Origin: Candidatus Omnitrophota bacterium | Lineage (GTDB): Bacteria; Omnitrophota; Gorgyraeia; Zapsychrales; Fredricksoniimonadaceae | Reading direction: 5' to 3' | Length of the DNA stretch: 64,000 nucleotides | NCBI GenBank assembly: GCA_903908245.1 | Contig: CAIVRE010000030.1 | Coordinates: 11,857-75,856, forward strand | Shown: positions 1 to 35,976 of the stretch, piece after piece | Layout: each line of letters starts with the position of its first letter | Numbering within the stretch: position 1 is the first letter of the stretch | Made by a program: the position numbers and the translations under genes | Notes under the pieces: generated by a model | Database searches by the model: none | What the model was told of the DNA's origin: nothing | Seen by the model: the letters and a program-made list of their open reading frames with translations, nothing else

Positions 1-746
1 TTACAGATCGTGAAAAAAGTGACCCCGTTGATAAATTCATTCTTCGCCGCGTAATCAATGATCCCGGATATTTCGCCTTCATTAAGGTTCTTGGCGATGG
101 TGACATTCAGGATAACGGGGACCCGCAGGGCTTTCAAATTTGCAAGGACCTTGAGTTTGACATCCAGCAGGTCCACGCCCCGCAAAACCGGATACACCTC
201 CCGCTTGAACCCGTCGAACTGAAGGTTGACCCGCTCCAATCCCGCCCGGACAAGATCTTTCAAATAATCAATATTGGTGAACTTCAACCCATTGGTATTG
301 ATGATCGCCGTCTTGTGATGCTTGCGCAGGATCGCAATGATCTCTCCCAGGTCCGGCCTGCACGTCGGTTCACCTCCGGACAAAGTAAAGAACGAAGCCT
401 TGCATTTCCTTACAACATCCTCGATATCCGCACATGAAGGGACAAGGTCCGCCTTGTGTTGCTTAATGTCCCCTAAAGAACAGATCGGGCAACTCATATT
501 GCAACTCCGGGTAGGCCAGATCTCGTACTCAAGGACCTTCTTCTTGCCCTCCATCACAGAAAAATAGAAATCATTAAGCCTTTTGTAACATTCGCTCCTG
601 TTAGACAACAAGATCCTGAAATCCCCGTGCCGGGGGCAGGATTTCTCCATCCACGCCTTGCCGTCCCTGGCCACCACCGAGGCATCCACCACGCCAAGGC
701 AGACAGGGCAGACACTCTTTGTTTTCCTTATGACCTGTGATCCCAT
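1..746 (-). CDS. radical SAM protein, partial (C-terminus beyond window start); N-terminal Cys-rich zinc-ribbon-like segment (CPVC...CPRHG) then CNMSCPIC radical SAM cluster
   Basis: Manual minus-strand translation from ATG at 744-746: MGSQVIRKTKSVCPVCLG...TRSCNMSCPICS (Cx3Cx2C)...TLSGGEPT (SAM-binding Gly-rich). Open to the window edge, so absent from the ORF track. Confidence 0.7.
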   Translation of the reverse strand, partial: MGSQVIRKTKSVCPVCLGVVDASVVARDGKAWMEKSCPRHGDFRILLSNRSECYKRLNDFYFSVMEGKKKVLEYEIWPTRSCNMSCPICSLGDIKQHKADLVPSCADIEDVVRKCKASFFTLSGGEPTCRPDLGEIIAILRKHHKTAIINTNGLKFTNIDYLKDLVRAGLERVNLQFDGFKREVYPVLRGVDLLDVKLKVLANLKALRVPVILNVTIAKNLNEGEISGIIDYAAKNEFINGVTFFTIC

Positions 747-773
747 CCACTTCCTCCCAGGAACCGGCGCCGC

Positions 774-1727
774 TCAACCACGGGGCAAGACCTGCTCTAT
801 CGCGTGAAAATAATCATTTCCCCATTCCCTGGCTTTCCAGTCCAGACACCTGGAACAATAGCTGACCTCGCCAAACTTGCGCGCCATATGCAATTCACGC
901 AGATGCTTATACGCTTCCGATCGCCAAACCTCTGCAATACCCTTCTGATTAATATCCCCGACGACCGTTTCATCCATCCAGTCTTCCACACAAAACTCCG
1001 CAAACCCATCCACATTAATAAAAATACGTTTCCAAAGCAGCGGACAGGGCCACCGGTCCCCGTCAGTGCTGATCTTTAATTTCGCCTGATCCAGAACACC
1101 CCCGATCGTCGTGAACGGACGGACCAGCACCCGGTCCACCTTCCGGCGCCAGTGATCCACAAACGCCCGCAACTCGCCCTCGGATTCCTTCTGATCGATG
1201 ATACTGACAAATATCTTTGTCCGCGCCCCCTTGCGGTCCCTCATCTCGATGAACCGGTGTACATTGGCCATGACCAGATCAAAATCACTGCCCACCCTGA
1301 TCTTCTCATAAGTGGATCTGTTTAAAGCATCCAGGCTGATCTCCACAACCTCAACCCCGATATCCAGGACCCTCCCGGCGATCTCCTGCGAAAGCCTGGT
1401 GCCATTGGTAATAAAATTGACAGGGGAAACTTTCTTATCTTTCGCGTAGCTCAGCATATCCAGGAACCGCGGATGCATCATCGGCTCTCCGTCACAAAGA
1501 AGCCTGAAAAGCACTCCCGGATAAAGCGCGACCTCATCCACGATCTTTTGATAAAGAGCCCAACTCATATGACGCGGACTATAATCAGGCTTTTTGGAAA
1601 CAGCCGTATACGGGCAATGAATACACGACAAGTTGCATACATTGGTGATCTCCATCACCACCATCGCGGGAAATTCCCTTGCCCGCTGATCCGAAAATCC
1701 GAACTTCTGCATAGGAATTCCCTTCAT
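774..1727 (-). CDS. radical SAM/SPASM-domain protein
   Basis: ITNVCNLSCIHCPYT (Cx3Cx2C); C-terminal Cys-rich SPASM/twitch-like region (CPLLW...FCVEDW...YCSRCLDW). Start chosen at MKGIP to avoid overlapping the upstream DegT gene. Confidence 0.8.
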   Translation of the reverse strand: MKGIPMQKFGFSDQRAREFPAMVVMEITNVCNLSCIHCPYTAVSKKPDYSPRHMSWALYQKIVDEVALYPGVLFRLLCDGEPMMHPRFLDMLSYAKDKKVSPVNFITNGTRLSQEIAGRVLDIGVEVVEISLDALNRSTYEKIRVGSDFDLVMANVHRFIEMRDRKGARTKIFVSIIDQKESEGELRAFVDHWRRKVDRVLVRPFTTIGGVLDQAKLKISTDGDRWPCPLLWKRIFINVDGFAEFCVEDWMDETVVGDINQKGIAEVWRSEAYKHLRELHMARKFGEVSYCSRCLDWKAREWGNDYFHAIEQVLPRG

Positions 1728-1740
1728 CTGCGCGATCTTA

Positions 1741-2802
1741 TCAGCAAGCCGCGGCCCTGACGGCCTCAATGATCCGAAGCACCTGTTGCTTGTTCAGCGA
1801 AGGGTAGATAGGGACGGAAAGCACTGACCGCATGATCATTTCCGTCACGGGAAAGTCCTTGCCCGGCAACCGAAGATACTGGTGGATCGACAGCGGCTTG
1901 ATCGTCTGCTTGACTTTCACCCCGTGCGCATAACACTGCCGCATAAAAGAATGAATATCTCCTTTAACCCTGATCATGAACCGGTGAAAAATATGCTTTC
2001 CTCCTGCCGAAGAATATGGAAGCGCGATATCCAGGTCCGAAAAGGCATCACGATAGATCGACGCGATCTTCACCCTTGCCTGGATAAACCCCTTTAATTG
2101 TTTTAACTGGGCCCTGCCAATGGCCGCCTGAAGATCCGTCATTCGATAAGTATATTTAACTCCGACATCCGACGAATCCGGCTCTTTCAATTTTCTTAGC
2201 CTCTCCAGCAACAAAGCCGAGTTGGCCACAACCATTCCGCCTTCTCCGGCAACGATATATTTTGTGCCTTGAAAAGAAAAAACCGCACAATCCCCCCAGC
2301 TGCCCACCGGCCTGCCCTTGTATTCTGCGCCGATAGAATGCGCACAATCCTCGATCACGGGGACACCCAGGGCCTTGAACCGGTCGATCTCGGCCGGACA
2401 GCCGAACATATGGGCCACGATCACGGCTTTTGTCCTGCGGGTCAATTTCTTCTTCGCCTGGGCAAAGGACAGGTTAAAATCATGCTCATCCACATCACAA
2501 ACGACAGGCACGGCACCGCAATAAGCCACCGCGTTAAGCAAAGACCGGCAGGCATAACTCGGCAAGAGCACCTCGGATCCCCGCTCCACACCCAACGCGA
2601 CCAGCGCCAGATGCAACGCGAGGGTCCCCGTGCTTGTTGCAACCGCGCCCAGGCATCCCACGCGATCCGTCACGGCCTCCTCGAACGTTTTAACAAAACG
2701 GCCTTCCGCAAGGAACCTGGTCCTCAAAACCGCGGCCACAGCCTCTTTTTCAGCCCTGCCGATGGTCGGCATGGAATGCTCGATGAACTGCTTTCTTTTC
2801 AC
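1741..2802 (-). CDS. DegT/DnrJ/EryC1/StrS-family PLP-dependent sugar aminotransferase
   Basis: Family-typical N-terminus and FSFQGTKYIVAGEGG lysine motif; 4-nt overlap with the downstream gene. Confidence 0.85.
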   Translation of the reverse strand: MKRKQFIEHSMPTIGRAEKEAVAAVLRTRFLAEGRFVKTFEEAVTDRVGCLGAVATSTGTLALHLALVALGVERGSEVLLPSYACRSLLNAVAYCGAVPVVCDVDEHDFNLSFAQAKKKLTRRTKAVIVAHMFGCPAEIDRFKALGVPVIEDCAHSIGAEYKGRPVGSWGDCAVFSFQGTKYIVAGEGGMVVANSALLLERLRKLKEPDSSDVGVKYTYRMTDLQAAIGRAQLKQLKGFIQARVKIASIYRDAFSDLDIALPYSSAGGKHIFHRFMIRVKGDIHSFMRQCYAHGVKVKQTIKPLSIHQYLRLPGKDFPVTEMIMRSVLSVPIYPSLNKQQVLRIIEAVRAAAC

Positions 2803-3710
2803 TTCGCTCCGGGAATATTTTTTGCTCTTTCCTCATCTTCCGCCTTGAGCCTTTGCGCCAACGAAGAATCAGGATATTTCTCCAGGACTTCGTGCCTGAC
2901 ACTCTGAACATCGTCCAACTTTTTCAATGCGTCATACGCAGTCATCAACTTCTGATAAACATCCTGGATGAACGCACTCTCGATATCCCTGGAAAGGAAA
3001 AAATTCGCCCTGATAAACTCGAAACTTTTCACCGAAGCCTCATTATCCTTGGAATTATCACTCACCAAACCCTGCAGATAAACACTGGCGAACTTGAAAG
3101 GGATAAATATATCATCCGAAGAAAATCCCTGGATCGTCCTGCAGGTAAATTCCTCCAATAAAGCATCCGGATAACGGGCAGCGACTTTCCCGATCTCATC
3201 CGCAAAAAGCAATGCCTGTTCTTTATCGCCCGCCAAAAGAGCTTTATTAAATAAACAATAAGCACCCATGAATTCGGCATCCTTGGCGAACCTGCTGTTC
3301 GGATTATCTTTGGAAAACTGCGTAAACTTATCCGTCGCCTTCGCCAATAACGGCCCGGTCCATCCGGCCTCCTTGGACGATTGAAAAATATCACTCAAGA
3401 TCTGACCGAAAAGATCCCGCTTGTCGGCAGGTGCATACTCCCGGGGCGCTCCCGCACTGACAACAGGCGGTACAGCACCCTGCGCCGGAGAACCGGCACT
3501 CGCTGCCTGCCCATCCACCATATCGATCTCATCAAGGTAATATTTGATCGGCGTCCCGTTAAACTCAACCTCAACATATTCCGCGGTCTTGTTGATAAGC
3601 TTTCCTTCCACCACCTTTCCGGTCTTCAAATGAATAACCTCGGCGGAAACGATCAACGGGATAAAGATCCATACTGCTGTGGCAAAAACAATAACCATTC
3701 GCTTCTTCAT
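2799..3710 (-). CDS. hypothetical exported protein (signal peptide MKKRMVIVFATAVWIFIPLIVSA)
   Basis: ORF with N-terminal signal peptide, no recognisable catalytic motif; translationally coupled to the flanking DegT genes. Confidence 0.5.
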   Translation of the reverse strand: MKKRMVIVFATAVWIFIPLIVSAEVIHLKTGKVVEGKLINKTAEYVEVEFNGTPIKYYLDEIDMVDGQAASAGSPAQGAVPPVVSAGAPREYAPADKRDLFGQILSDIFQSSKEAGWTGPLLAKATDKFTQFSKDNPNSRFAKDAEFMGAYCLFNKALLAGDKEQALLFADEIGKVAARYPDALLEEFTCRTIQGFSSDDIFIPFKFASVYLQGLVSDNSKDNEASVKSFEFIRANFFLSRDIESAFIQDVYQKLMTAYDALKKLDDVQSVRHEVLEKYPDSSLAQRLKAEDEERAKNIPGAK

Positions 3711-4867
3711 ACCTGCCCCCCCTTTTCTTTAACATCCTCTTCACCACCCAAAAATACCCTTAGAACATTGACGACCTGACCCTGCTGCTGCGCGGAAAGC
3801 CCTGTCCAAAAAGGCAAGCTTACCGTCTCATTCCCGATCCTTTCGGCACATGGAAAATCCCCTTCATTATACCCGAATCTGGAGCGGTAAAAAGACAAAA
3901 GATGAACCGCTCGATAATGCACCGCGCATCCGATCCCTTTTTCCGACAATTCCCGCAACAAGGCATCCCGGCACCCCCCGCTCACGCGGACCGTAAAAAG
4001 ATGATACGCACTTTTCACGCCAGGCACGATCCCGGAAAGGCTCACCGGACTGATACCCGCCAGCTCATCCGCATATTTCCTGTATAAAGACGCCCTGGAT
4101 CGCCAGCGACGCTCAATATGCGGGATCTGCGGCAGGAGCATGGCGGCCTGTATATTGCTCATATTATATTTCCAGCCAAGCTCGGGCATATCCCAATGGA
4201 CATAACCGGCTTCGTGCCTGTCCGCCGGCCCCTTGCTCATTCCATGATTTCTCAGGGCCATGACCCGCCCCGCCAGATGGGGATCATTCGTGGCGACCGC
4301 TCCCCCTTCACCGCTCGTTACATTCTTCGTCGCGTAAAAACTGAAACACGCGATATCGCTCAACTGGCCCGGACGGATACCATCTCGCGCGCCCTCGACA
4401 CAGTGCGCGGAATCCTCAATGATCTTCAAGTGATGCGCATCCGCTACTGCCTTGATCGCGCGCATATCACACATTTGGCCGTAAAGATGGACCGGAATGA
4501 CCGCTTTGGTCCTTGGCGTGATCGCCTGCCCGATATTCCGCGGATCGATCAATCCGGTGTTTGGATCAACGTCAACAAAAACCGGCTTCGCCCCTGCATA
4601 AAGAATGGCATTAGGCGTTGCGATAAACGTCATTGGCGTAGTAATGACCTCATCACCCGGCCCCAGCCCAAGGGCAAGAAGAGACAAGTGCAGCGCGGCC
4701 GTGCATGAACTCAGCCCAACAACATGTTTTACCCCCAGATATTCAGCGAATTGACTTTCAAAATCCTTGACATATTGCCCCGTTGTTAAAAATATCCCGT
4801 CGAGGCATTCAAGGACTTTCTGCTTCTCTTCAGCGCCCAGGTTGTGTTTATAGAATTCAACCTTCAT
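3707..4867 (-). CDS. DegT/DnrJ/EryC1/StrS-family PLP-dependent sugar aminotransferase
   Basis: MKVEFYKHNLGAEEKQKVLECLDGIFLTTGQYV...FSFYATKNVTSGEGG lysine motif. Confidence 0.85.
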   Translation of the reverse strand: MKVEFYKHNLGAEEKQKVLECLDGIFLTTGQYVKDFESQFAEYLGVKHVVGLSSCTAALHLSLLALGLGPGDEVITTPMTFIATPNAILYAGAKPVFVDVDPNTGLIDPRNIGQAITPRTKAVIPVHLYGQMCDMRAIKAVADAHHLKIIEDSAHCVEGARDGIRPGQLSDIACFSFYATKNVTSGEGGAVATNDPHLAGRVMALRNHGMSKGPADRHEAGYVHWDMPELGWKYNMSNIQAAMLLPQIPHIERRWRSRASLYRKYADELAGISPVSLSGIVPGVKSAYHLFTVRVSGGCRDALLRELSEKGIGCAVHYRAVHLLSFYRSRFGYNEGDFPCAERIGNETVSLPFWTGLSAQQQGQVVNVLRVFLGGEEDVKEKGGQV

Positions 4868-4868: not shown

Positions 4869-4897
4869 GATCGCCACCCCTGTAATAAGTATCCGTT

Positions 4898-6193
4898 TCA
4901 TTGGGACAGGACCGGTCTTTTTTTAAAAACTTCTTTGAGTATAGTATTGGCCATATTCTCGGCCAGCAGGCGGTTGCCTTTATCTGTACAATGGCCAAAG
5001 TCATAACCGAACGAATCACGGAAATATTCCCGGTAGCTGCCCTTCTCAAGCGCCGCTTTAAATATCTTTTCGTTATCCACGAAAACAACGCCTTCTGCCT
5101 TGCCTTGAAAGATCTTCTTTAACGGTCCCAAATTGCGAATGGGATACTGCGCACAGACATATACTATGCCTCTTTTATGCAGGATCGTCCGGAGTTTAAG
5201 ATAATTATTATTTGTCATTGGACAATAGTAACCTGCTCTTAATTCCCTGGCCTTCTTGCCGTATCTGCCCGCAAGCACCGAATTACCCTTTTCTATATTT
5301 AATACTTCCAATGCTCCGTATGTCATGTCATCTTTTGGATTGAGTTCTATTGCCCTCTTGAATGCCTCTTCCGCCTCGGCAAATTTATTCTGGTTCAGAT
5401 AAGAAACTCCCAGCTCAACATACGCCCAATCATTTTTAGGATCATGCCCTATTGTCCTCCTGAACAGCTCCTCCGCCTCGGCAAATCTCATCTGCCGCCG
5501 GTAAGAAACTCCCAGCTCAATAGGCGCCCTGGCATCTTTGGGATCAAGTTCAATGGCCCTCCTGAATAACTCATCCGCTTCAGAAAATTTACCCTGGCGT
5601 CGATAGAAAACTCCCAGCTCGACATCCGACCCATTGTTCTTTGAGTTGAGATCTAAAGGCCTGCCCTGGTTTGGAGAAGGAACTTCCTCCCTGTGAACAT
5701 CTTCTTTCTTCAGCTTCTTGAGGATATGCGTGTATATGAGCCGGCTGAACCTGTATGCCCGGCAGTGCCGAAATAGCCAGCCATCAGCCTCGGGTATGTC
5801 CTGATAATACATTATCCCGCCATCATTACACCCCATCATTGTTACCACTATATCAGGCTTATACTTGTCAAGATTCGCCTCTAATTGCGATAATATCACT
5901 CCTGTATCAATGCCGATCAATCCCCTGTCGATAACACTGAATTTAACGCCAACATTCCGCTGGTTAAGCACCTCCTCAAGAAACCGCGGGTATTGGTTCA
6001 GGGTGGTCGACTCTCCCAGGCACATGATGCGGCAAGAGCCTTTCTCTTTGATGGCTTGCAGGTTCTTATATTCCTGCAGGGATAACATTATAAAACCGCC
6101 CAGGCGCAAACCTGTCTCAAGGATCAAGGCAGCCAGGAACAATCCGCAAAATATGACGGCAAGTCTTTGATGTTTATAGAATTCAACCTTCAT
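4898..6193 (-). CDS. membrane-anchored SGNH/GDSL-family hydrolase with inserted TPR repeats (paralog 1 of 3)
   Basis: N-terminal TM helix; SGNH blocks GESTT (I), GCND (III), DFGHCT (V); ~5 TPR-like repeats (ELFRRAIELDPKDA...) between blocks III and V. Confidence 0.75.
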   Translation of the reverse strand: MKVEFYKHQRLAVIFCGLFLAALILETGLRLGGFIMLSLQEYKNLQAIKEKGSCRIMCLGESTTLNQYPRFLEEVLNQRNVGVKFSVIDRGLIGIDTGVILSQLEANLDKYKPDIVVTMMGCNDGGIMYYQDIPEADGWLFRHCRAYRFSRLIYTHILKKLKKEDVHREEVPSPNQGRPLDLNSKNNGSDVELGVFYRRQGKFSEADELFRRAIELDPKDARAPIELGVSYRRQMRFAEAEELFRRTIGHDPKNDWAYVELGVSYLNQNKFAEAEEAFKRAIELNPKDDMTYGALEVLNIEKGNSVLAGRYGKKARELRAGYYCPMTNNNYLKLRTILHKRGIVYVCAQYPIRNLGPLKKIFQGKAEGVVFVDNEKIFKAALEKGSYREYFRDSFGYDFGHCTDKGNRLLAENMANTILKEVFKKRPVLSQ

Positions 6194-6194
6194 G
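6171..6194. repeat. second copy of the 24-nt start-codon repeat (see 4845-4868)
   Basis: Exact identity; gives the SGNH-TPR gene the same MKVEFYKH N-terminus as the DegT gene. Confidence 0.8.
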
Positions 6195-7052
6195 CCTCTC
6201 CGCCCTCATAACCGATGAACCGCTCTTCCACATATGATTATTAAAAAAGAACCAGTAAATGCCCCTGATCAATTCGTAAGGAAAAGAAACAATATGCACC
6301 AACACCTGCCGCCCGAAACGATCATTCTTGGTGATCATCCAATACCTGTTCCGGATACATAAATACTGCCGGATATCCCGGCCTGTCTGTGAACCATTGC
6401 CCGTATGTGTGCACGTGATCCGAGGGCAGAATAATACCGCCCAGCCAGCCAGCCTGGCCCGCCAGGCGAGATCCACATCCTCGACAAGAAAGAAGAACCT
6501 TTCATCAAAATACCCCGTTACCTCTTTAAGCTTCTCCAGCATCTTTCGCCTGTAAAAAGCCGCCGCACTGCAAGGGCCGATGATCTTCCCTTCCGCCGGA
6601 ATAGCCATCACCTTCTTCCGTCCGCGATTAAGATCATGGAACCTTCTCAAGAACGTCAGGTCGATCCCATGGGAATAAACCGTCTCGCCATCCTCGTTCA
6701 ATATATCGGCCTGAACCATTCCGATGTTATCCGCAAATGAAAAACTGGCCGAAATGAACTGCCGGATAAAATCATCACCGATCACCACATCACTGTCCAG
6801 CGTCAGGACCCAATCCCCGGATGAAGCCGCTATCCCCTGGTTCCTGGCCCTGCAAGCGCCCTCATTCCCTGAATTCTCTATCAATCGGACTTGCCTGTAA
6901 TTCTCCTTGAGAATACGAAGGGTCGCGTCTTTCGAGCCATTATCAACAACAATGACCTCAACACCCTCGTCCCCCTGGCGAAACACAGCATCCAGGCACG
7001 ACTGAACATGTTCCTGGCTATTGAACGTAACAATGATTATTGACAGCCGCAT
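6183..7052 (-). CDS. family 2 glycosyltransferase
   Basis: MRLSIIIVTFNSQEHVQSCLDAV...VIVVDNGSKD; DxD-type motifs. Confidence 0.85.
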   Translation of the reverse strand: MRLSIIIVTFNSQEHVQSCLDAVFRQGDEGVEVIVVDNGSKDATLRILKENYRQVRLIENSGNEGACRARNQGIAASSGDWVLTLDSDVVIGDDFIRQFISASFSFADNIGMVQADILNEDGETVYSHGIDLTFLRRFHDLNRGRKKVMAIPAEGKIIGPCSAAAFYRRKMLEKLKEVTGYFDERFFFLVEDVDLAWRARLAGWAVLFCPRITCTHTGNGSQTGRDIRQYLCIRNRYWMITKNDRFGRQVLVHIVSFPYELIRGIYWFFFNNHMWKSGSSVMRAERHEG

Positions 7053-8407: not shown

Positions 8408-8408
8408 A

Positions 8409-8828
8409 TTATTTATTAAGATCAATGTGCCTCTGGATCTGTTCGAAGAATACCCTGACCTGATCAAGATTCTGATTAATATCTTTTGAATCACAATTGA
8501 TCTGGTCAACCGCGTGATTAATGCCCTCCAGGCGGTCGAGCTTCTCGAGCCGGCCGAGCTTTTCAAGGTTATCGAGCCGGGACAGGCCCTGCCTTAATTC
8601 TTCCAGCTTCCTGTTCTGATCAAAGATCATTTGCGCGATATTACCGAAAACCCGGATCAACAGCGCGGCAAGGGCCCCCGCGAACATGATCAAACATCCC
8701 GCAATGACCGCGCGAAGACCGGCCGATCCGGCAACGATCCAATACCCTCCGCCCAGCACTCCGAGCGCGCACAAGCCCCAGGCAAAAACATTCAAAACAA
8801 ACACCGTCGGGATCTCTTTAGTTTTCAT
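8409..8828 (-). CDS. small membrane protein: two TM helices + C-terminal coiled coil (LDNLEKLGRLEKLDRLEG)
   Basis: Hydrophobic segments and heptad-like LxxLEK repeats; function unknown. Confidence 0.5.
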   Translation of the reverse strand: MKTKEIPTVFVLNVFAWGLCALGVLGGGYWIVAGSAGLRAVIAGCLIMFAGALAALLIRVFGNIAQMIFDQNRKLEELRQGLSRLDNLEKLGRLEKLDRLEGINHAVDQINCDSKDINQNLDQVRVFFEQIQRHIDLNK

Positions 8829-11865: not shown

Positions 11866-11888
11866 ACCTTGTCACATTATTATTACGT

Positions 11889-12050: not shown

Positions 12051-12068
12051 CACCACCCCCTCGATCGG

Positions 12069-12299: not shown

Positions 12300-12305
12300 G
12301 GCCTT

Positions 12306-27486: not shown

Positions 27487-27503
27487 CGCATTTATCCTTG
27501 AAT

Positions 27504-28283: not shown

Positions 28284-29577
28284 GGGCCAACCGCTCCCCG
28301 GTCTTTATCCCGTCGAGGATCGCATCTTCCATCGACATATAACGCCAGCTCCCGTAGCGCCCGCAAGTCAGGACCCGATGCGCCTGGAGGAACTTGAGGA
28401 TCTCCCCCCGCGCCGCCGCATAACCCTTGTCATACACAGGATAAGCGTACTCAATATCATTGATGTCGCGAACAAGCACCGCATCGCCCGCTGACAGCAA
28501 TCCGACTTTCTCCAGGTCCTGTTCAATGCGCGCAACGATCCCGGCCTTATCCAGCGGTTTCTGCCTGGAATACGAAACCTCCGCGTACAAAGAGCTTTTC
28601 CCCGCCGGAACAAGATCGGACGAGAAATTATGATAAAACCCCACCCGAAAAAAGCTGATATCTTTCTGTGGAAAATAGGCCCAATGTTTCTTGCTCGGAC
28701 AGGCCTGCCGCAACCCGAGGTTCAAATTGAACAGGGAGTTCCAGCGCAAACGGCCGAACGCGGCCTTGATCCCCCTGGGCAGGCCGCTGATCATGCCGGA
28801 CAATTCCGGCAGGGGGATCGTCGAGACCAAATGAGCGTAATCCTGCTTCACGCCATTGGAAAACTCGACCCGCTGCTTCTTCAGGTCGATCGTCCGGACC
28901 TTAAACCCCGTATGGATATTATCCAGGCCCGCCTTTAACGCCCGGGGAAGCGCTTCGATCCCGCCTTTGCGGGGATACCAGAAATGCGCGTTATAACCCA
29001 AAGGCTCCTGCCGGCCCGGACCGCCGGACACCTGGCGCAGCGTGGGTTGAGGCACAAACCCTTCCGTCCAGGCGCACGTCATCATCCTTGGAGAGACCGT
29101 CCAGAACTTCGTGTTATACGGGACCATAAAATGCTTCGCGATCCCGTCCCCAAACGTCCCCTTGATCCAGCGCGCAAGGTCCGCACCCGCCTTTACACGC
29201 GAACCCCGGCGCGCCTTGATAAAACCGTCAAGGCACTCTTTCCGGACATTGTCCGGCAACGCCGAAAGATTGGCCTGAAAAGGATACCCGATGAACCGCT
29301 CATGCGAATAGACCCAAGCGCTTCTCTGATGCCCCGCCAGGCCTTCTTTCAGCAATCCATTGACCAGGCCCAAAGACCCTTTATGCCTGAAATGGAGCAA
29401 ATGTCCGTCGATATCAAACGTGAACCCTTTGGCCTTCCTTGACCGGCACAACCCCCCGACCTCAGGTTCTTTTTCATAAACATGGCACGCCTGCCCCTGC
29501 CCCTGCCCCTGCAGATGCCTGGCCGCGCTCAGGCCCGCCAGCCCCGCGCCAAGGATAACATACCCCTTATCTGTCAT
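28276..29577 (-). CDS. FAD/NAD(P)-binding oxidoreductase, UDP-galactopyranose-mutase-like
   Basis: N-terminal Rossmann GxGxxG (VILGAGLAGLSAA), EKEPEVGG; resemblance to Glf/amine-oxidase folds. Precise function uncertain. Confidence 0.5.
   Translation of the reverse strand: MTDKGYVILGAGLAGLSAARHLQGQGQGQACHVYEKEPEVGGLCRSRKAKGFTFDIDGHLLHFRHKGSLGLVNGLLKEGLAGHQRSAWVYSHERFIGYPFQANLSALPDNVRKECLDGFIKARRGSRVKAGADLARWIKGTFGDGIAKHFMVPYNTKFWTVSPRMMTCAWTEGFVPQPTLRQVSGGPGRQEPLGYNAHFWYPRKGGIEALPRALKAGLDNIHTGFKVRTIDLKKQRVEFSNGVKQDYAHLVSTIPLPELSGMISGLPRGIKAAFGRLRWNSLFNLNLGLRQACPSKKHWAYFPQKDISFFRVGFYHNFSSDLVPAGKSSLYAEVSYSRQKPLDKAGIVARIEQDLEKVGLLSAGDAVLVRDINDIEYAYPVYDKGYAAARGEILKFLQAHRVLTCGRYGSWRYMSMEDAILDGIKTGERLAHG
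29491..29512. repeat. hexanucleotide microsatellite (ctgccc)x3.5 encoding GQGQGQ in the oxidoreductase
   Basis: Seen directly: ctgcccctgcccctgcccctgc. Confidence 0.7.
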
Positions 29578-30553
29578 TGCGCTCCGCCTTCATCAGCACC
29601 CTGAAGAAAATATAACTTGTCAGCAAGACCGCCAATATCAACAGCCCGCCCGCCCAGTCATCGCATTGGCTAAGAATGATCCCGCAAACCGCGGCGAACA
29701 ACGACAAGCCCAGCAGGACCAACAACGCGCTTTTGCGCGTCAGGCCCAGCGCGACCAGCCGAAGCGCCATATGATCATCACTTTTATTGAACGGAAGAAT
29801 GCGCTTGCTGCAACGAAAATAAATAAGGACGGCTGTTTCCAGAAGAGGGACCCAGAACAGAAGGATCGGGCTCAATAACGCGACCGGCTCACCCCTTCTG
29901 GCATAACTGACCATTAACGCCAATGCCGCCAGGACAAACCCCAGGAAATGGCTCCCGGCATTGCCCAGATAGATCCTTGCCGGAGGAAAATTAAAGAACC
30001 CAAAACCCGTGATCACCGCGAAAAGGCCCAGCGCCAATATCCGGGCATTCACATCGGGATAAAAGAACGTAAGGGCGAATATGGCCCCTGTCACCGTCAA
30101 GGCCACGCCGGCGCTTAACCCGTCGATGACGTCGAGCAGGTTAAAGGCATTGGTGATCCCGATGATCCACAAGAACGTGACCAGGGCATTACCCCAGTCA
30201 TTAAGATAGATCATATGCGTCCTGACATCGATCAGGATCAGCACGACCGCACATACAGACTGCAGCAGGAGCTTCTGGACAACCGACGCCTCTTTCAGGT
30301 CGTCCATCACCCCGAACGCCAGCATCGCCAGGGATATGCCCAGGACACTCATGATCCTGCCGGGATCAATGCCGAAACCAATAACCCCTAGGACAGAGGA
30401 AACCACCAGAGCGCCGCCTATCCCGATCCCGCCGACAAGCGCGATCTCGCCGGATACCAGGACACGGGTCCTGAACGCCAGGCGGCGCAACACCACCATC
30501 AATAACAGGCTGCAAACCAGTGCCGACGAAGCGACCAGGTAATATTTAAACAT
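29567..30553 (-). CDS. polyprenyl-phosphate N-acetylhexosamine-1-phosphate transferase (WecA/WbpL/MraY family, GT4 membrane)
   Basis: Polytopic membrane protein with VMDDLKE and NAFNLLDVIDGLSAG motifs. Confidence 0.8.
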   Translation of the reverse strand: MFKYYLVASSALVCSLLLMVVLRRLAFRTRVLVSGEIALVGGIGIGGALVVSSVLGVIGFGIDPGRIMSVLGISLAMLAFGVMDDLKEASVVQKLLLQSVCAVVLILIDVRTHMIYLNDWGNALVTFLWIIGITNAFNLLDVIDGLSAGVALTVTGAIFALTFFYPDVNARILALGLFAVITGFGFFNFPPARIYLGNAGSHFLGFVLAALALMVSYARRGEPVALLSPILLFWVPLLETAVLIYFRCSKRILPFNKSDDHMALRLVALGLTRKSALLVLLGLSLFAAVCGIILSQCDDWAGGLLILAVLLTSYIFFRVLMKAERNDR

Positions 30554-31709
30554 TCACCGCCCGCATGTTCGAATAAAGCGCCTCGATCTTCCGGACCGCA
30601 TGACCGGAAGTGAACTCGCTGCCCGCAATAAATTCGGCAGCTCTTCGGGATACCGTCATCCTCAGCTCAGGGTTTCCCAATAATTCCAGGACCCTGTCCC
30701 GCATACCCCGGATATCTCCTGTCGGGACCAGGTATCCGGTATCCCCCTGCACAATAACATCCCGAATGCCTCCCGTATCAGTCGCGACCACCGCAACACC
30801 GGCCGCCATGGACTCCAGGACAGCGACCGGAAGGCCTTCCCATAACGATGTCAGGACGAACACATCCAGGGCGGAAAGGACGGACCCGACATCCCGCCGC
30901 CAGCCCGTCAATACAATATCCTTCTCCAACCCGGCCTCACGAACAAGCGCGGTGATCGCGCCGCGCAGGATCCCGTCACCAGCCAGCACAAACTTTACGC
31001 CTGGCAATGCCGTCTTAAGTTCAGCCGCCAGCCTGATAAAATCCAGCGGCGCTTTCTGAGGCTTGAAACAGGCGACCATCCCGACCACAAGGTCCAGCTC
31101 ACCGAACCCGAACTCCCTGCGCGCCCGTCCGCGCTGATCTTCACGCTTAAAGTCTTCCCTGTTGATGCCGCAACGAATGACGCAATAGCCCTCAAGAGGA
31201 ACGATCCCGTTCTCCCGCCCCCGCTGTTCATCCCGCGCCGAAACCACGATCAATCGATGGGTAAATCCGGCACAAAACTTTTCCAGGAACAGGAACGATC
31301 GATAAATCCATCCCGATTGATGCTCATGAAAACTCCAGCCATGAACGGTATGAATGATCCGCCTGACCCCGGCCGCCCCGGCCGCCAGCCTGCCCAGCAC
31401 CCCGGCTTTTGAACTGTGCGTATGGACCAGGCCTATCTTATTTTTTTTTATAAAGAAATACAAAGAAATAAACGTAAAAAGATCCCTGAACGGATCGATA
31501 CGGCGCTCCAGGAAAGGCGAACGGAAAACACTCAAACCCGCGATGGCCAAAGCCTCGTCGACCAGGAACCCGTCCCGCGCGGTAAAAAGAAAAACATTGA
31601 ACTTGCGGCGGTCAATGCCCCGGATCAGGCTTAATAAATGCGTTTGAGCTCCACCCAGCTCAAGCTTGGTGATAACATACAGCAAATTGATCTTGGTCTC
31701 TGTCACCAT
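30546..31709 (-). CDS. GT4 (group 1) glycosyltransferase
   Basis: LLYVITKLELGGAQTHLLSL...; C-terminal EGLPVAVLESMAAGVAVVATDTGG motif. Confidence 0.8.
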   Translation of the reverse strand: MVTETKINLLYVITKLELGGAQTHLLSLIRGIDRRKFNVFLFTARDGFLVDEALAIAGLSVFRSPFLERRIDPFRDLFTFISLYFFIKKNKIGLVHTHSSKAGVLGRLAAGAAGVRRIIHTVHGWSFHEHQSGWIYRSFLFLEKFCAGFTHRLIVVSARDEQRGRENGIVPLEGYCVIRCGINREDFKREDQRGRARREFGFGELDLVVGMVACFKPQKAPLDFIRLAAELKTALPGVKFVLAGDGILRGAITALVREAGLEKDIVLTGWRRDVGSVLSALDVFVLTSLWEGLPVAVLESMAAGVAVVATDTGGIRDVIVQGDTGYLVPTGDIRGMRDRVLELLGNPELRMTVSRRAAEFIAGSEFTSGHAVRKIEALYSNMRAVNV

Positions 31710-31756
31710 GACTGTCCGGCCTTGAAAATAAGCATATCTGATATAATACTTTAATT

Positions 31757-32923
31757 ATGTTTATATTATTACTATTTTTTATAACTCTCCGGCCGTTCAT
31801 CTGTTCTTTTGCCTTTCTTGAACCCGAGATCATTTATGCGACACTGCTGTCCCTCTTTCTTCTTTCCTGGATATTTATAAAGAAGATCGAGCTGGCGACC
31901 TCCCCCAGGATGACCATCGCCCTTTCCCTGTTCCTGCTTGCCCTGGCCGTATCCCTGATATTCTCCAAAAACCAGATGTTCGCGGCCATCCACACCTGTC
32001 AGTTCATTAACGGCCTCCTGCTTTTCCTTGTTTGCCGATCCCTGCCCCGTGAAAAGATCCCTGCGGTCCTGCTGTCAATGCTGATAACCGCCCTGTTCAT
32101 TTGCGCCCTGGCATTATATCAATCCTTCGGAAAGGCACCCGAAGCCCTCACATCAAAAAATATCATCGACCAGATAGGCATCACTTATATCGAACAACAC
32201 CGGGCCTACGCTCCTTTTATCACACCCAACGCGCTGGGGGGCTACCTCATCCTCATCATCCCCCTTGCCTTCACCCTCAAAAACCGGGCCTGGCTGGCGG
32301 CCCCCCTGATCCTTACCCTCCTCCTGACCAAATCCCTGGGAGCGATCATCAGTTTCACCGCAGCCACAACACTATATTTTTATTTTCAAGGCAACTTAAA
32401 GAAAAAACGCATGAGGACTATCCTGCTCGGGCTTATCGCCGGCGCTCTCATCATCTTCCTGATCAGGGCACAGGCGAACCAGCACATATTCCAGCCATCA
32501 TTCTCTGTTCAAATGCGCCTGGAATACTGGCGGCTAACCTGGAAACTCATCAGCGCATATCCTTTAACAGGAACAGGCCCGGGCTGTTTCGACCTGCCCG
32601 ATGCGCGCTACACCCACAATTCTTACCTGCAGCTCTGGGCAGAAACAGGGATAATAGGCATAACATCTTTCCTTTACCTGCTGTTTACCCTGTTCAAATC
32701 GGGACGGGGCATCTTAAAAGAAGGGCTTGATAAAAACCTGGCCGCCGGATTAATATGGGCCTCCGTCGGCTTCTTTATCCACAACTTTTTTGATTTTACG
32801 TTCTTTCTGCCGGAAGTTTCGTTTATGTGTTGCGTTGTCCTGGGGTTGCTCTTGAACCGCTCGCCCCTCTCCGGCGCAGCGCTGATAAAAGATAATGGCA
32901 CCGGGCAAGAAAGATCCCGATAA
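31757..32923 (+). CDS. O-antigen ligase/polymerase-like membrane protein (Wzy_C domain)
   Basis: ~10 predicted TM helices; HNSYLQLWAETGIIG-type motif. Only plus-strand gene; AT-rich divergent promoter region 31710-31756 shared with the GT4 gene. Confidence 0.7.
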   Translation: MFILLLFFITLRPFICSFAFLEPEIIYATLLSLFLLSWIFIKKIELATSPRMTIALSLFLLALAVSLIFSKNQMFAAIHTCQFINGLLLFLVCRSLPREKIPAVLLSMLITALFICALALYQSFGKAPEALTSKNIIDQIGITYIEQHRAYAPFITPNALGGYLILIIPLAFTLKNRAWLAAPLILTLLLTKSLGAIISFTAATTLYFYFQGNLKKKRMRTILLGLIAGALIIFLIRAQANQHIFQPSFSVQMRLEYWRLTWKLISAYPLTGTGPGCFDLPDARYTHNSYLQLWAETGIIGITSFLYLLFTLFKSGRGILKEGLDKNLAAGLIWASVGFFIHNFFDFTFFLPEVSFMCCVVLGLLLNRSPLSGAALIKDNGTGQERSR

Positions 32924-33806
32924 CACGCGGCCGGAACACAACCACATAGCCCCATGCGCACAGGTCATGGACGAGCATCGGGACAAAATGCAACACGAAC
33001 CCGAAAAACGTTTCGTTCTTGATGATCGCAAGATAACGGTTCTTGATCAGGTCGGCATGAAGGTCATCGCTTAAATACTGCCGCGCGAAAGACCTAGCCG
33101 ATCCGGGATCCACACGCACCGATCCTCCCCGCGCATGATACGCCAGCGCCGAAGGGATATAATACGCCCTCCACCCATTCCTGTTGGCCCGCCAGGCAAG
33201 ATCTAAATCTTCATTGAATATCCGGAAATCAGGATCGAACCACCCCGCGGCTTCCTTGACCTGATCTAGCATCTTTTTACGATAAAAAGCCACGGCCCCG
33301 CCGACACCGAAAACAACCTCTTCCTGCCCGAACTGCCCGTGATCCGGCCTGCCGTAACCTCGTTCCATGGCAGTCCTCCAGACACTCAGGAACAAGCCCG
33401 TACTGTCCACGGTCTTTTTATCCTGCCGCAGGACCTTGCCGCTCACCATCCCGATATCCCCGCTGAACAGGAACCCCCCGAGCGCTTCCCCGATAAAATG
33501 ATCGTCGAGGACCACATCATCGTTCAAACACAAGACAAACTCCCCCCGGCTCATGGCAATGCCCTGATTCATGGACCCGCAATAAAAAAGATTCGTGGAA
33601 GAAGCGTGCACCCTCAGGGACGGGCATAATTCCTGCGCCCTGCGGCTTACGGCAGGGTCAAAAGAATTATCGATCAGAATAATATCAAGAAAAGGATGTG
33701 TTTGCCTGTTAACCGACTGAAGGCAGGAAATAAAATAATCATTCTTCCCGCAGGTGACAACAACAACTGAAACCAGCTTGTCCATATTAAAACCTTGTGC
33801 CGACAC
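32823..33806 (-). CDS. family 2 glycosyltransferase
   Basis: LVSVVVVTCGKNDYFISCLQSV...ILIDNSF...LNDDV; its 3' end overlaps the convergent Wzy-like gene by ~100 nt. Confidence 0.8.
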   Translation of the reverse strand: MSAQGFNMDKLVSVVVVTCGKNDYFISCLQSVNRQTHPFLDIILIDNSFDPAVSRRAQELCPSLRVHASSTNLFYCGSMNQGIAMSRGEFVLCLNDDVVLDDHFIGEALGGFLFSGDIGMVSGKVLRQDKKTVDSTGLFLSVWRTAMERGYGRPDHGQFGQEEVVFGVGGAVAFYRKKMLDQVKEAAGWFDPDFRIFNEDLDLAWRANRNGWRAYYIPSALAYHARGGSVRVDPGSARSFARQYLSDDLHADLIKNRYLAIIKNETFFGFVLHFVPMLVHDLCAWGYVVVFRPRVIGIFLARCHYLLSALRRRGASGSRATPGQRNT

Positions 33807-34880
33807 CTAACCCTTGGCCCATCGGGGGCGGTTATGGTCGTAGATCTCTTTAAGAATATCGTCGGAATTCCTGGTCAATGCCCAACCCGGATAATGCGCC
33901 ATGAACCTGGACACATCGCTGATCCACCAGATATCGTCCCCGCTCCGGTTGGCTTCCACATAAGAGACCTTCATCTTCCTGCCCGTGATCTTTTCACACA
34001 TGCCGATCGATTCCAGGAGGGAGCAATTACTGAAACGGCTGCCTCCCATGTTGTAAACTTCTCCGCACTTCGGGTCCTGATAGAAATGATAGAACGCGTT
34101 CACGAGATCGTAACTATGGATATTATCCCTGACCTGCTTCCCCTTATAACCAAAGATCTGGTATTCCCGGCCGATCACGGCGCATTTCATCAAATAGGCC
34201 AGATACCCGTGCGGCTCAACCCCGCTGTGACGGGGGCCGGATAAACAGCCTCCCCGGAAAACGCCGGTCTTCATGCCGAAATAACGGCCATACTCCTGCG
34301 TGAGAAGGTCGGCCGCCGCCTTGGAAACGCCGAACAGCGAATGCTTGCACTGGTCGAGCGACATACTCTCGTCGATACCCCTGGCAAAATAAGGATGCGC
34401 CGGATCCAGCTCCCAACGGGTGTCCAGCTCGACAAGCGGCAGGCGGTTACAGTTATCCCCGTAAACCTTGTTGGTCGACATAAAAATGAATACCGTATCC
34501 GGACAATGCTTGCGCGCAGCCTCCAGCAGATTCAGCGTCCCGACCGCGTTGACGCCAAAGTCCGTGAACGGCTCCTTCGCGGCCCAGTCATGGCTGGGCT
34601 GCGCGGCATTATGGATGATCACCGCGATATCCCGGCCGTATTCTTCAAAGATACGCGTCAACGCCGCCATATCACGGATATCAATATCATGGTTAATGAA
34701 GCCATCCCCGCATTCCTGCCTAAGCTCGTCAAGATTCCAGCCGGTAGCCCCCTCCGTACCGAAGAAATATTGACGCAGGTCATTATCGATCCCGACGACC
34801 CGGAACCCCCGGGCATGAAAGAACCGGACCGATTCGGAACCGACAAGCCCGGCAGACCCTGTGATCAACGCGATCTTCAT
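33807..34880 (-). CDS. NAD-dependent epimerase/dehydratase (SDR), CDP-paratose/tyvelose 2-epimerase-like
   Basis: [36 protein letters not shown]. Confidence 0.8.
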
Positions 34881-34905
34881 TATTATCTCCGATACGAACT
34901 GACGC

Positions 34906-35976
34906 TCAAACCATTATATCCTTGAGATCATCCGCATGACCCCTGATCCATTGAAAAGTATCCTGCAAAATATCCTGTGCCGAACGCGAAGGCTTCCAGT
35001 CAAAAGCCTCTGCGGTCCGGCCATTATCGGTCACATACCAGATCAGGTCGCCAGGCCGCGTTGGCGCCACGCTCCCGATCTCCAGGCGATGCCCGGTCAG
35101 TTGCGCGCAGATCGCGGTTGTTTCCTTAAGCGACAGCGTCACCCCGGCCGAACCGCCGACATTGAATACCTCCCCGCGGAACACAGGATCATCATCGACC
35201 AGGCATTGAACCTGACGGGCCACAAGGCTCGACAGATCATCCACATGTAAAAGGTCCCGCACCTGTTTTCCCAGGCCGCCGAATCCGGTATAGTTCAGCG
35301 GCCTTTTGAAAAAATGGCTCGCCAGCCAGAACGTAAAGACCCCTTGGTCGATCTTGCCCAACTGCCACGGGCCGGCAACAACCCCGCACCGGTTAATGAT
35401 CGACGGCAACTCATACCGGGCGCCATACTCCCTCAGGATCAATTCCGCGGACAATTTGCTCGCGCCATAGAGCGTGCGGACCCCGTCCAAAGGCATCTGC
35501 ACCTGAACGCCAACCGGTGTTATTCCCGAAGACGATTGCGCAAGATCAAATCTGGTTTCATTTTCGACATAACGGCAGGCATTGATACGGTCGTAAGGAT
35601 AAATGCGGGAACTGGAAAAGAAAATGACCGGGACTTTGCGCTCCCTGGCCCATTCAAAACAATTGATCGCGCCCAACAGATTGACATCCAGCAGATAGCG
35701 CGCATCCCCGGGACCGGAACCGGTCTGCGCGGATGACTCCGCGCTGCACTCGATCATCAGGGCAAAATCGCCGCCGAGACCTTTAAGGTTTTCAGGATCG
35801 CGGATATCCCCGTGGACCACTGTAACGCCATGCGCCAGGACCCTGGCACGCAGGAACTCCGAACCCCGCCGGCTCAGATTATCCAGCACCGTCACCGCAT
35901 AACCGCGGGAAACAAGGTCGACCGCCAGATTTGATCCTATGAAACCACACCCCCCTGTAATGAGTATCCGTTTCAT
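34906..35976 (-). CDS. NAD-dependent epimerase/dehydratase (SDR), paralog of the preceding gene
   Basis: [21 protein letters not shown]... Start set at MKRIL so the gene does not overlap dnaJ. Confidence 0.8.

Follow-up and report, generated by a model that had tools for sequence, protein, structure and literature searches.

Two groups of described systems come closest to the locus reported here. The first comprises the ATP-binding cassette (ABC) transporter-dependent O-polysaccharide and galactan pathways, such as E. coli O9a, Klebsiella O1/O2 galactan I with Glf, and the Aquifex and mycobacterial WzmWzt systems. The second comprises the radical S-adenosylmethionine (SAM) enzymes of antibiotic biosynthesis, namely AprD4 (apramycin), BtrN (butirosin), DesII (desosamine), BlsE (blasticidin S), and GenK/GenD1 (gentamicin); radical SAM carbohydrate chemistry is known from a handful of such single antibiotic-pathway enzymes. 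We analyzed a window of 64,000 nucleotides from a Candidatus Omnitrophota bacterium (assembly GCA_903908245.1, contig CAIVRE010000030.1, positions 11,857 to 75,856), a member of an uncultured phylum of wide distribution whose cells are presumed to attach to other cells or to prey on them, and found at positions 1–35976 a gene array that shares features with both groups. Like the O-polysaccharide and galactan pathways, the locus has a WecA-family start, a homologue of UDP-galactopyranose mutase (UGM), glycosyltransferases of families GT4 and GT2, Wzm, a Wzt with a C-terminal extension, and a Wzy_C protein; unlike them, it has at least 23 radical SAM genes, a triple-repeat Wzt, three SGNH/TPR proteins, a second Wzm/Wzt pair, and no WbdD-type terminator that we could find. 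The antibiotic enzymes are the nearest solved relatives of several of its radical SAM proteins, and DegT and carbamoyltransferase genes stand alongside in both settings. However, the antibiotic enzymes occur singly or in pairs, act on soluble small molecules, and come from Actinobacteria or Bacillus, whereas here arrays of 5 to 20 or more lie in a polyprenyl-linked glycan operon of an anaerobic candidate phylum, and identities are low. We consider it likely that the array is the proximal half of an Omnitrophota surface-glycoconjugate locus of at least 77 kb in which radical SAM enzymes edit sugars before export. The ABC-transporter-dependent glycan pathway is the known part of this system, while the radical SAM tailoring battery is the new part and is unprecedented. 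At the level of sequence these claims are solid; the chemistry is proposed by analogy.

Positions 1–35976 form a co-directional array of minus-strand genes with the Wzy_C gene as the sole plus-strand exception. Coding sequence makes up 98.4% of the array, and gaps between its genes range from -32 to +91 bp, with the plus-strand Wzy_C gene overlapping its neighbor by 101 bp. Radical SAM genes account for 31% of these 36 kb. Because no radical SAM homologue was found in the remaining 28 kb of the window, their density is a trait of the locus and not of the genome. The G+C content is 0.505 in the radical-SAM-rich part (1–28283), 0.546 at the conserved-core end (28284–35976), and 0.552 in the housekeeping flank (35977–64000), and the lower value of the array matches what is usual in variable surface-glycan loci. 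The right-hand border is formed by dnaJ-dnaK-grpE-hrcA. In scans of positions 1–38000, promoter and terminator counts were modestly to clearly raised (terminator-like sites lay 2–4.6 standard deviations over shuffles), but no convincing intergenic site was seen inside the array and no usable operon boundaries emerged. Rfam and tRNA scans gave no match, cobalamin riboswitch included.

Genes were annotated using Pfam with gathering cut-offs, NCBIfam with curated cut-offs, and sequence searches of the PDB. The framework set comprises a WecA-like transferase, the UGM homologue, one GT4-type and three GT2 glycosyltransferases in addition to a GT2-radical-SAM fusion, Wzm, Wzt, and the Wzy_C protein. 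A further tailoring set comprises two short-chain dehydrogenases/reductases (SDRs), two DegT aminotransferases, a WbuX-like amidotransferase, a carbamoyltransferase, and three SGNH/TPR proteins. The transporter genes and the right-hand end of the array are as follows.

17435–20158, minus strand: long Wzt of 907 aa, an ABC ATPase (aa 1–235; Pfam ABC_tran) followed by three tandem all-beta repeats of ~225 aa.
27504–28283, minus strand: Wzm ABC-2 permease (PF01061; top NCBIfam model, galactan Wzm).
28276–29577, minus strand: FAD enzyme, homologue of eukaryote-type UDP-galactopyranose mutase (PF01593, PF13450; PDB 4DSG, E 5e-51).
29567–30553, minus strand: WecA/MraY-family polyprenyl-phosphate sugar-1-phosphate transferase, the initiating enzyme (PF00953, E 2e-30, 106 bits against a cut-off of 27).
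30546–31709, minus strand: GT4-type glycosyltransferase (Pfam Glycos_transf_1; PF00534, PF13439).
31757–32923, plus strand: Wzy_C membrane protein, WaaL-type ligase or O-oligosaccharyltransferase (PF04932, E 2e-17, 64 bits against a cut-off of 31.7).
32823–33806, minus strand: GT2 glycosyltransferase (PF00535, PF13641).
33807–34880, minus strand: SDR nucleotide-sugar epimerase/dehydratase (PF01370, PF16363; 4,6-dehydratase and GalE models matched below cut-off).
34906–35976, minus strand: SDR nucleotide-sugar epimerase/dehydratase, the first gene of the array, adjoining dnaJ (PF01370).

The start of the first gene is likely at 35976, since the Pfam domain begins at residue 51 of the longest open reading frame (ORF). 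The WecA-like transferase has eleven hydrophobic segments and scores 78 bits against the WecA equivalog model, whose cut-off is 326. The Wzy_C protein has at least nine hydrophobic segments and is a candidate ligase that would move the exported glycan to an acceptor, either lipid A-core or protein. Alignment of the UGM homologue with PDB 4DSG spans residues 6–424, its full length, while its score against the bacterial UGM model TIGR00031 is just 29.5 bits. Mutase activity is putative, and given the full-length match the glycan probably contains a furanose. The conserved core thus far described resembles galactan-type ABC-transporter pathways. In the long Wzt, the repeats occupy residues about 239–907 (17435–19450 of the window), are all-beta in the predicted model, and match one another at pairwise E-values of 1e-11 to 8e-20. 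Recognition of a modified chain end by the transporter, through a carbohydrate-binding domain of Wzt, has been described (PMC9445017), and by this principle the predicted triple beta-domain here is a candidate for reading the completed chain.

Nine ORFs of the array match PF04055 over the gathering cut-off, and all nine carry the CX3CX2C motif.

3–746, minus strand: Zn-ribbon radical SAM enzyme, Tes/GDGT-MAS-like, N-terminal 248 aa (3' end beyond the window edge; full length 448 aa; PF23545, PF04055, motif CNMSCPIC).
774–1712, minus strand: radical SAM/SPASM enzyme, twitch-like, 312 aa (PF04055, PF13186, motif CNLSCIHC; best PDB match BtrN, E 4e-8).
7037–8407, minus strand: radical SAM enzyme with B12-binding domain, HpnJ/AprD4-like (PF02310, PF04055; PDB AprD4 6FD2, E 1e-33).
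13441–14844, minus strand: B12-binding radical SAM enzyme (PF02310, PF04055; class-B C-methyltransferase models nearest, TIGR03975 at 160 bits against a cut-off of 282).
14844–16262, minus strand: B12-binding radical SAM enzyme, ApyD/class-B-like (PF02310, PF04055; NCBIfam below cut-off, TIGR03975 at 139 against 282).
16275–17393, minus strand: radical SAM/SPASM enzyme of a family that mostly follows the fusion gene in other genomes (PF04055, PF13186; nearest MoaA, 1e-7).
23215–24408, minus strand: radical SAM/SPASM enzyme with full Cys-rich C-terminus (PF04055, PF13186; PDB SkfB 3e-15, BlsE 2e-13).
24377–25552, minus strand: radical SAM/SPASM enzyme, BlsE-like (PF04055; PF13186 at 22.9 against a cut-off of 21.5 bits; PDB BlsE, E 7e-16).
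25576–27486, minus strand: GT2-radical-SAM fusion of 636 aa, the marker gene of this locus type (PF00535, PF04055; SPASM-like Cys motif).

An earlier note on this DNA, made from the letters alone, had named framework and radical SAM genes of a surface-glycan locus; they are present at or near where it placed them, on the minus strand, and Pfam confirms their domains. Its count of at least nine radical SAM enzymes, borne out by PF04055 in the nine ORFs, understated the full array of at least 23. All three enzymes that it called B12-binding score over the PF02310 cut-off of 32.1 bits (7037–8407, 13441–14844, and 14844–16262: 39.7, 41.9, and 32.8 bits across the three), the CX3CX2C motif, the lack of which it had named as a refutation, is in place throughout, and its GT2-radical-SAM fusion is real, with PF00535 and PF04055 in one protein and homologues at full length. 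Its SPASM/twitch set stands for the four genes in which PF13186 exceeds the cut-off (774–1712, 16275–17393, 23215–24408, and 24377–25552) and falls for the window-edge gene (3–746), which is a PF23545 Zn-ribbon enzyme resembling Tes and GDGT-MAS. The note did not have the UGM homologue, the three SGNH/TPR genes, the split of the carbamoyltransferase, or the continuation of the locus past the window.

The radical SAM proteins of the window are mutually only 21–30% identical, which indicates that they are functionally distinct and not recent duplicates. For four of them the nearest solved relatives by sequence act on sugars: AprD4 for 7037–8407, BlsE for 24377–25552 and for the fusion, and BtrN for 774–1712. 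Hydrogen abstraction from a sugar is thus the reaction of several of the nearest characterized enzymes. Cobalamin use by the three enzymes with a B12-binding domain is predicted. In its sequence the 7037–8407 enzyme is closer to AprD4 and HpnJ, neither of which is a methylase. HpnJ is its best curated model (TIGR03471, 261.6 bits, E 1e-77, near full length; cut-off 577.6), and pairing with a GT2 gene in a conserved module recalls the hopanoid side-chain module, in which HpnI is a GT2 enzyme, HpnJ a B12-type radical SAM enzyme for sugar ring contraction, and HpnK their partner. The enzyme scores far below the HpnJ cut-off, however, and unlike that module the locus lacks squalene-hopene cyclase and HpnH and has a Wzm/Wzt context. 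We rejected membership of the hopanoid pathway on this score and because neither shc nor hpn genes occur in the window or in its extension described below.

At least 240 homologues of the GT2-radical-SAM fusion were retrieved at E <= 1e-10. The best 120 are near-full-length and 45–100% identical, and nearly all the named ones among them belong to Candidatus Omnitrophota. Although Pfam SPASM is not matched, the C-terminal Cys pattern of the protein is invariant (C576-X12-G-X4-C594 plus C625/629/633/635). Across 17 homologues that are 46–73% identical to the fusion, the invariant features are the DxD motif of the GT2 half, the Cys triad of the radical SAM half, and the CX12GX4C...CX3CX3CXC tail; hence both halves are under selection. 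The best PDB sequence relative of the radical SAM domain is BlsE (2e-13). In an AlphaFold 2 model (mean predicted local distance difference score, pLDDT, 87.9), Foldseek matched the GT2 half best to PcManGT, a membrane-bound mannosyltransferase, then to the polymer-modifying TarP and TarS, and the radical SAM half to DesII, BlsE (template-modeling score 0.69, target-normalized), and SkfB. Further fusions occur in other loci: L009/L029 (15110–17470), L026, L052, and L024 have double-length ORFs of ~650–990 aa with two radical SAM domains, and L043 has a GT2-radical-SAM ORF of 1170 aa.

To follow the locus through the phylum, we scanned one genome per species with the fusion alignment reduced to two peptide patterns and classified neighboring ORFs by comparison with the window proteins. 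The scan returned 53 loci from species-representative genomes of about 50 species (best identity to the window's fusion, 73%; the window's own genome was not in the set). The names of homologues and the gene order shared among genomes of the phylum both place the window in Omnitrophota. Almost all were labeled Omnitrophota; the few labeled Planctomycetia, Paceibacterota, or Nanoarchaeota were taken as binning or labeling errors. A pattern scan of this kind establishes a wide spread of the locus within the phylum and says nothing on its universality or on the fraction of Omnitrophota that carry it. Within 10 kb upstream of the fusion gene, Wzm was present in 24/25 loci, a long Wzt in 23/25 (ABC ATPases of ~905 aa with the same repeats), a UGM-like gene in 19/25, a WecA-like gene in 17/25, and a GT1 gene in 17/25. 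Within 10 kb downstream, every one of the 24 loci with enough flank had more radical SAM genes, between 2 and 9 of them (median 6), so that radical SAM genes keep within the glycan operon in related species, as the earlier note's reading of the array would have it. CX3CX2C was found in 142/144 of these downstream genes, and 141/144 were co-directional. A module of two SPASM genes, a GT2 gene, a gene for a 139-aa membrane protein, an HpnJ/AprD4-like radical SAM gene, and a second GT2 gene recurs in about ten species. In sum, the core is conserved, and the radical SAM array that comes after it varies. This combination suggests serotype-like surface diversification, and a fast-evolving, serotype-like structure would fit both the low G+C and the variability between species. 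Omnitrophota genomes are reported to contain hypervariable polysaccharide cassettes, with radical SAM genes unmentioned (bioRxiv 10.64898/2026.05.20.726742; 10.64898/2026.06.07.730766).

The array does not end at the window start. An exact-sequence look-up located the window genes on several metagenome contigs of the European Nucleotide Archive, one of them 500 kb long (ERZ1426827), and on this contig the array continues in the operon direction with at least 14 further radical SAM genes: one MiaB-like, three more Zn-ribbon, six more B12-type, and four plain or SPASM. The array total is therefore at least 23 radical SAM genes in ~77 kb on one strand, and the totals are lower bounds for the stretch followed, which does not reach the far end of the locus and was read partly from gene lists. 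All 11 extension radical SAM genes for which DNA was available have CX3CX2C, and PF04055 is listed in the gene tables. Their neighbors are DegT genes, a GT2 gene (~244 aa), WbqC, a PMT_2 glycosyltransferase of fold type C (GT-C), a second short Wzt/Wzm pair, and LPG_synthase_TM. Unlike the window set, the array includes expanded tandem paralogues (L063, L064): five B12-type enzymes are 44–66% identical, and the four Zn-ribbon Tes-like enzymes compared are 35–50% identical. The same distal module stands on a 3.36-Mb Omnitrophota contig; there it packs 11 radical SAM genes into 16 kb and ends in LPG_synthase_TM, GT2, WbqC, and YfhO. The distal ~244-aa GT2, LPG_synthase_TM, and PMT_2/YfhO GT-C genes recall three-component periplasmic glycosylation systems (a GtrB/CsbB GT2, a flippase, and a GT-C enzyme such as YfhO or ArnT). 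Those systems transfer a polyprenyl-phosphate-linked sugar unmodified; in contrast, the genes here are embedded among at least 10 radical SAM genes.

Interleaved with the radical SAM genes of the window are the remaining tailoring and glycosyltransferase genes.

1741–2802, minus strand: DegT-family sugar aminotransferase (PF01041, E 3e-85; PseC-like at 232 bits, under cut-off).
2799–3710, minus strand: 303-aa protein of no assigned function with a signal-peptide-like N-terminus (N-terminal hydrophobic segment; weak TPR/YbgF similarity in NCBIfam, no Pfam match).
3707–4867, minus strand: DegT-family sugar aminotransferase, PseC-like (PF01041, E 3e-120; TIGR03588 at 330 bits against a cut-off of 423).
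4898–6193, minus strand: membrane-anchored SGNH/GDSL hydrolase with TPR, paralogue a (Lipase_GDSL_2, TPR; N-terminal transmembrane segment).
6183–7052, minus strand: GT2 glycosyltransferase, final gene of the recurrent GT2-139aa-radical SAM-GT2 module (PF00535; module present in 9 of the Omnitrophota loci listed).
8409–8828, minus strand: 139-aa membrane protein with two transmembrane segments and no Pfam or NCBIfam match (same-position homologues in other loci, between GT2 and the HpnJ-like radical SAM gene).
8818–10149, minus strand: GT2 glycosyltransferase with a ~200-aa C-terminal extension (PF00535, E 6e-35).
10215–10781, minus strand: carbamoyltransferase, C-terminal part, 188 aa (PF16861, E 6e-72; NodU-like).
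10813–11862, minus strand: carbamoyltransferase, N-terminal part, 349 aa (PF02543, E 7e-79).
11889–12050, minus strand: 53-aa membrane protein, DUF5989 (PF19451, E 6e-4, below cut-off; transmembrane segment).
12069–12299, minus strand: 76-aa membrane protein, the other small partner of the carbamoyltransferase (ORF with transmembrane segment).
12306–13349, minus strand: WbuX-like N-acetyl-sugar amidotransferase of the PP-loop type (TIGR03573 at 169 bits against a cut-off of 203; weak QueC match).
20207–21685, minus strand: membrane-anchored SGNH/GDSL protein with TPR, paralogue b (Pfam domains; N-terminal membrane anchor).
21721–23208, minus strand: membrane-anchored SGNH/GDSL protein with TPR, paralogue c (Pfam domains; N-terminal membrane anchor).

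The two carbamoyltransferase ORFs are 31 bp apart, and the identical split is found on several independent metagenome contigs, while in other Omnitrophota the enzyme is encoded by a single gene of ~600 aa. Either the enzyme truly consists of two subunits here, or the split marks a pseudogene shared by the whole population. Next to it lies the one large gap between assigned genes, of 440 bp (11866–12305), which holds the 53-aa and 76-aa ORFs. The earlier note had argued that packing is too tight for precursor genes of peptides that are made on ribosomes and modified after translation (RiPPs); no precursor was found, as it expected, but this gap does have room for small genes. A transmembrane helix dominates each of the two products. 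An equivalent pair of small ORFs stands immediately upstream of the carbamoyltransferase gene in 2/3 other Omnitrophota genomes checked (L061, 4872–5297; L040, 14153–14560), and both of these have ORFs of ~72 aa whose N-termini are similar to that of the 76-aa protein. The order of the pair varies among genomes, and the DUF5989-like member ends in ...PFIYTLF in relatives. The two small proteins, which we take to resemble SxtJ/SxtK-type small proteins, are probably accessory to the carbamoyltransferase and are no RiPP precursors. Regarding the SGNH/TPR proteins, similar GDSL genes occur in several other Omnitrophota loci, where they separate the UGM-like gene from Wzm.

The pathway that we propose would begin with the WecA-like enzyme, which would start a glycan on polyprenyl phosphate. 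The UGM homologue, the SDRs, the DegT enzymes, the WbuX-like amidotransferase, and the carbamoyltransferase would provide amino, amidino, carbamoyl, and furanose sugars or decorate them, and the GT4 and GT2 enzymes would lengthen the chain at the cytoplasmic face. The radical SAM enzymes would edit the sugars ahead of export, an order that we infer because radical SAM enzymes need a reducing cytoplasm; at least the fusion and the GT2-139aa-HpnJ/AprD4-like-GT2 module, in the reading that we favor, would work on carrier-lipid-linked sugars right after glycosyl transfer. By analogy with their relatives, the BlsE/DesII/BtrN-like SPASM/twitch enzymes could abstract a hydrogen, with oxidation, decarboxylation, deamination, or epimerization to follow, the AprD4/HpnJ-like enzyme could catalyze 1,2-diol dehydration or ring rearrangement, and the class-B B12 enzymes could C-methylate. 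Beyond the window, the Tes/MJ0619-like Zn-ribbon enzymes might form C-C bonds or methylate, and the MiaB-like enzyme might carry out methylthiolation. Wzm and Wzt would then export the product, the Wzy_C enzyme would ligate it to an acceptor, and the SGNH/TPR proteins would modify it outside the cytoplasm. The distal GtrB-like GT2, the flippase-like protein, and the GT-C enzyme could provide a second route, in which a heavily edited polyprenyl-phosphate monosaccharide is added as a periplasmic side branch. Every test run agrees with the general proposal of the earlier note, an ABC-transporter-type surface-glycan locus with sugar-directed, non-RiPP radical SAM tailoring. Its specific product, a C-methylated, amidino, carbamoylated deoxy-sugar polymer, is not sustained, being drawn from family names alone with no curated threshold reached.

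Several observations weigh against the editing of glycan sugars. Substrates and product are both deduced, and none of the radical SAM proteins here reaches a curated NCBIfam family cut-off, so that every assigned chemistry is a remote analogy. With the exception of AprD4 and GDGT-MAS, the PDB similarities fall mostly within the shared radical SAM core. For the fusion, the way in which the domains are arranged is predicted with uncertainty (predicted template-modeling score, pTM, 0.53). The Wzt repeats have no Pfam or PDB sequence match, known Wzt binding domains included, and no kinase or SAM-methyltransferase domain that could represent a WbdD-type chain terminator appears in the Pfam tables of the window locus and extension; such a terminator is not universal in the Wzm/Wzt pathway family. 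Finally, the Zn-ribbon enzymes are closest to the lipid-acting GDGT-MAS, and three of the five paralogous distal B12 enzymes match a "ladderane lipid" model best or second-best.

A bolder form of the proposal, which we advance tentatively and regard as possible though on balance doubtful, is that the carrier-lipid-linked glycan is edited by radical chemistry after assembly, with a logic like that of RiPPs. A conserved core of WecA, UGM, Wzm, Wzt, and the GT2-radical-SAM fusion would make a simple scaffold, and a battery of up to at least 20 radical SAM enzymes, differing from species to species, would modify unactivated sugar carbons with C-methyl, deoxy, keto or epimerized, C-C-bridged (carbocyclic or cross-linked), and methylthio groups. 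The resulting sugars, without known counterpart, would form the hypervariable surface of ultra-small, host-associated bacteria. The most serious competitor of the main proposal, which we think plausible but more doubtful than probable, holds that the radical SAM enzymes act only on soluble nucleotide sugars and give unusual activated monomers to ordinary glycosyltransferases, with no editing of lipid-linked or polymeric sugars. The DegT and SDR genes among the radical SAM genes encode typical nucleotide-sugar enzymes, and the characterized relatives DesII, BlsE, BtrN, and AprD4 all act on small soluble molecules. Nevertheless, the full-length conservation of the fusion across more than 120 sequence clusters, together with the GT2-flanked module, is easier to understand if radical chemistry follows glycosyl transfer. 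Moreover, the GT2 domain of the fusion is structurally nearest to a membrane-bound enzyme and then to polymer-modifying ones, and 23 radical SAM enzymes set against ~8 glycosyltransferases imply several edits per residue.

Modification of a lipid is, in our judgment, unlikely. On this account the Zn-ribbon Tes-like, distal B12, and MiaB-like enzymes would act on an acyl or isoprenoid part, be it that of a glycolipid, lipid A, or the carrier, and the outcome would be an unusual glycolipid or a membrane-spanning lipid. The window-edge gene and its four paralogues share the Zn-ribbon plus radical SAM core of the family PF23545, which includes GDGT-MAS/Tes and MJ0619-type C-methylases. A full-length copy of the window-edge gene on contig L001 matches GDGT-MAS (PDB 7TOL) at E 2e-44, the product of 3–746 itself gives 155/144 bits against the NCBIfam TrsS/Tes models (below cut-off), and the Zn-ribbon enzymes score 105–147 bits against the Tes model NF045702. 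Two of the distal B12 paralogues have the "lipid biosynthesis B12-binding/radical SAM" (ladderane) model as their best, and published surveys place homologues of the Mss/Hbs radical SAM lipid enzymes and "ladderane" biosynthetic gene clusters in Omnitrophota (PMC11868695; bioRxiv 10.1101/2023.10.20.563219; PMC9902471). These scores lie far under the family cut-offs (450 and 360 bits), however, and no fatty-acid, polyketide, isoprenoid, or glycerol-ether lipid gene was found in the 77 kb examined. Unlike in GDGT-MAS/Tes systems, there are five paralogues in one array, the fifth known solely from a gene list, and they stand among DegT aminotransferases, GT2, WbqC, and GT-C enzymes; the PF23545 family also includes a pterin C-methylase. 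With 105–147 bits against a cut-off of 450 and sugar enzymes as neighbors, membership of the Tes/GDGT-MAS tetraether pathway was rejected.

Very unlikely, to our mind, is a diffusible aminoglycoside-like pseudo-oligosaccharide that the ABC transporter exports with no surface polymer being made. The BtrN-like, AprD4-like, and GenK/GenD1-like B12 enzymes, the many DegT genes, and the TobZ/NodU-type carbamoyltransferase would suit such a product. The polyprenyl-phosphate transferase, the O-antigen-type Wzm/Wzt, Wzy_C, GT-C, and the periplasmic SGNH/TPR proteins, on the other hand, are machinery of a lipid-linked surface glycan, and the core is kept phylum-wide at a fixed type of chromosomal position, unlike sporadic antibiotic clusters. 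The Pfam tables of window and extension contain no DHQ-synthase-type domain as expected of 2-deoxy-scyllo-inosose synthase or another cyclitol-forming enzyme, and on this ground membership of the 2-deoxystreptamine aminoglycosides was rejected. We give almost no credence to a RiPP or protein-maturation cluster, in which a ribosomal peptide or protein, to be glycosylated later, would be the target of the radical SAM/SPASM and B12 enzymes, and rejected it: although the best NCBIfam models of several enzymes are peptide maturases (StsB, WgkB, PqqE, ApyD, and TIGR03975, all below cut-off) and SkfB is the top PDB match of 23215–24408, gaps do not exceed 91 bp apart from the one of 440 bp, whose two ORFs encode hydrophobic membrane proteins, no PqqD/RRE (RiPP recognition element), leader peptidase, or cyclodehydratase domain was found in the Pfam tables of the window locus, and the radical SAM arrays always lie in a Wzm/Wzt/WecA/glycosyltransferase context.

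In the literature searched, the coverage of which excluded most subscription journals, we found no description of radical-SAM-rich glycan loci, of a GT2-radical-SAM fusion, or of such a trait in Omnitrophota, in line with the earlier note's view of the locus as undescribed. A conserved glycan locus with 9–23 radical SAM enzymes would open many enzyme families to study, among them that of the widespread fusion and those of AprD4/HpnJ, BlsE/DesII, Tes, and MiaB relatives found in a sugar context. If the proposal is true, it predicts sugar structures unseen in any cell envelope. It also gives a testable molecular trait for Omnitrophota at the cell surface, where such cells meet host and phage. 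The locus is a reason for caution in biomarker and genome-mining surveys, as Tes-, Mss-, Hbs-, and "ladderane"-type matches in Omnitrophota could stem from glycan-locus paralogues and not from lipid or RiPP pathways (PMC11868695, PMC9902471, bioRxiv 10.1101/2023.10.20.563219).

Outside the array, the heat-shock cluster that adjoins the glycan locus extends over positions 35996–45016 and comprises dnaJ, dnaK, grpE, hrcA, a gene for a MORN-repeat protein (40534–41583), clpB, and two hsp20 genes. Between dnaK and dnaJ, at 37159–37189, lies a perfect 14-bp hairpin. Farther into the flank, the ORF at 53374–54483 encodes a Sua5/YciO/YrdC domain fused to a low-molecular-weight phosphotyrosine phosphatase domain.

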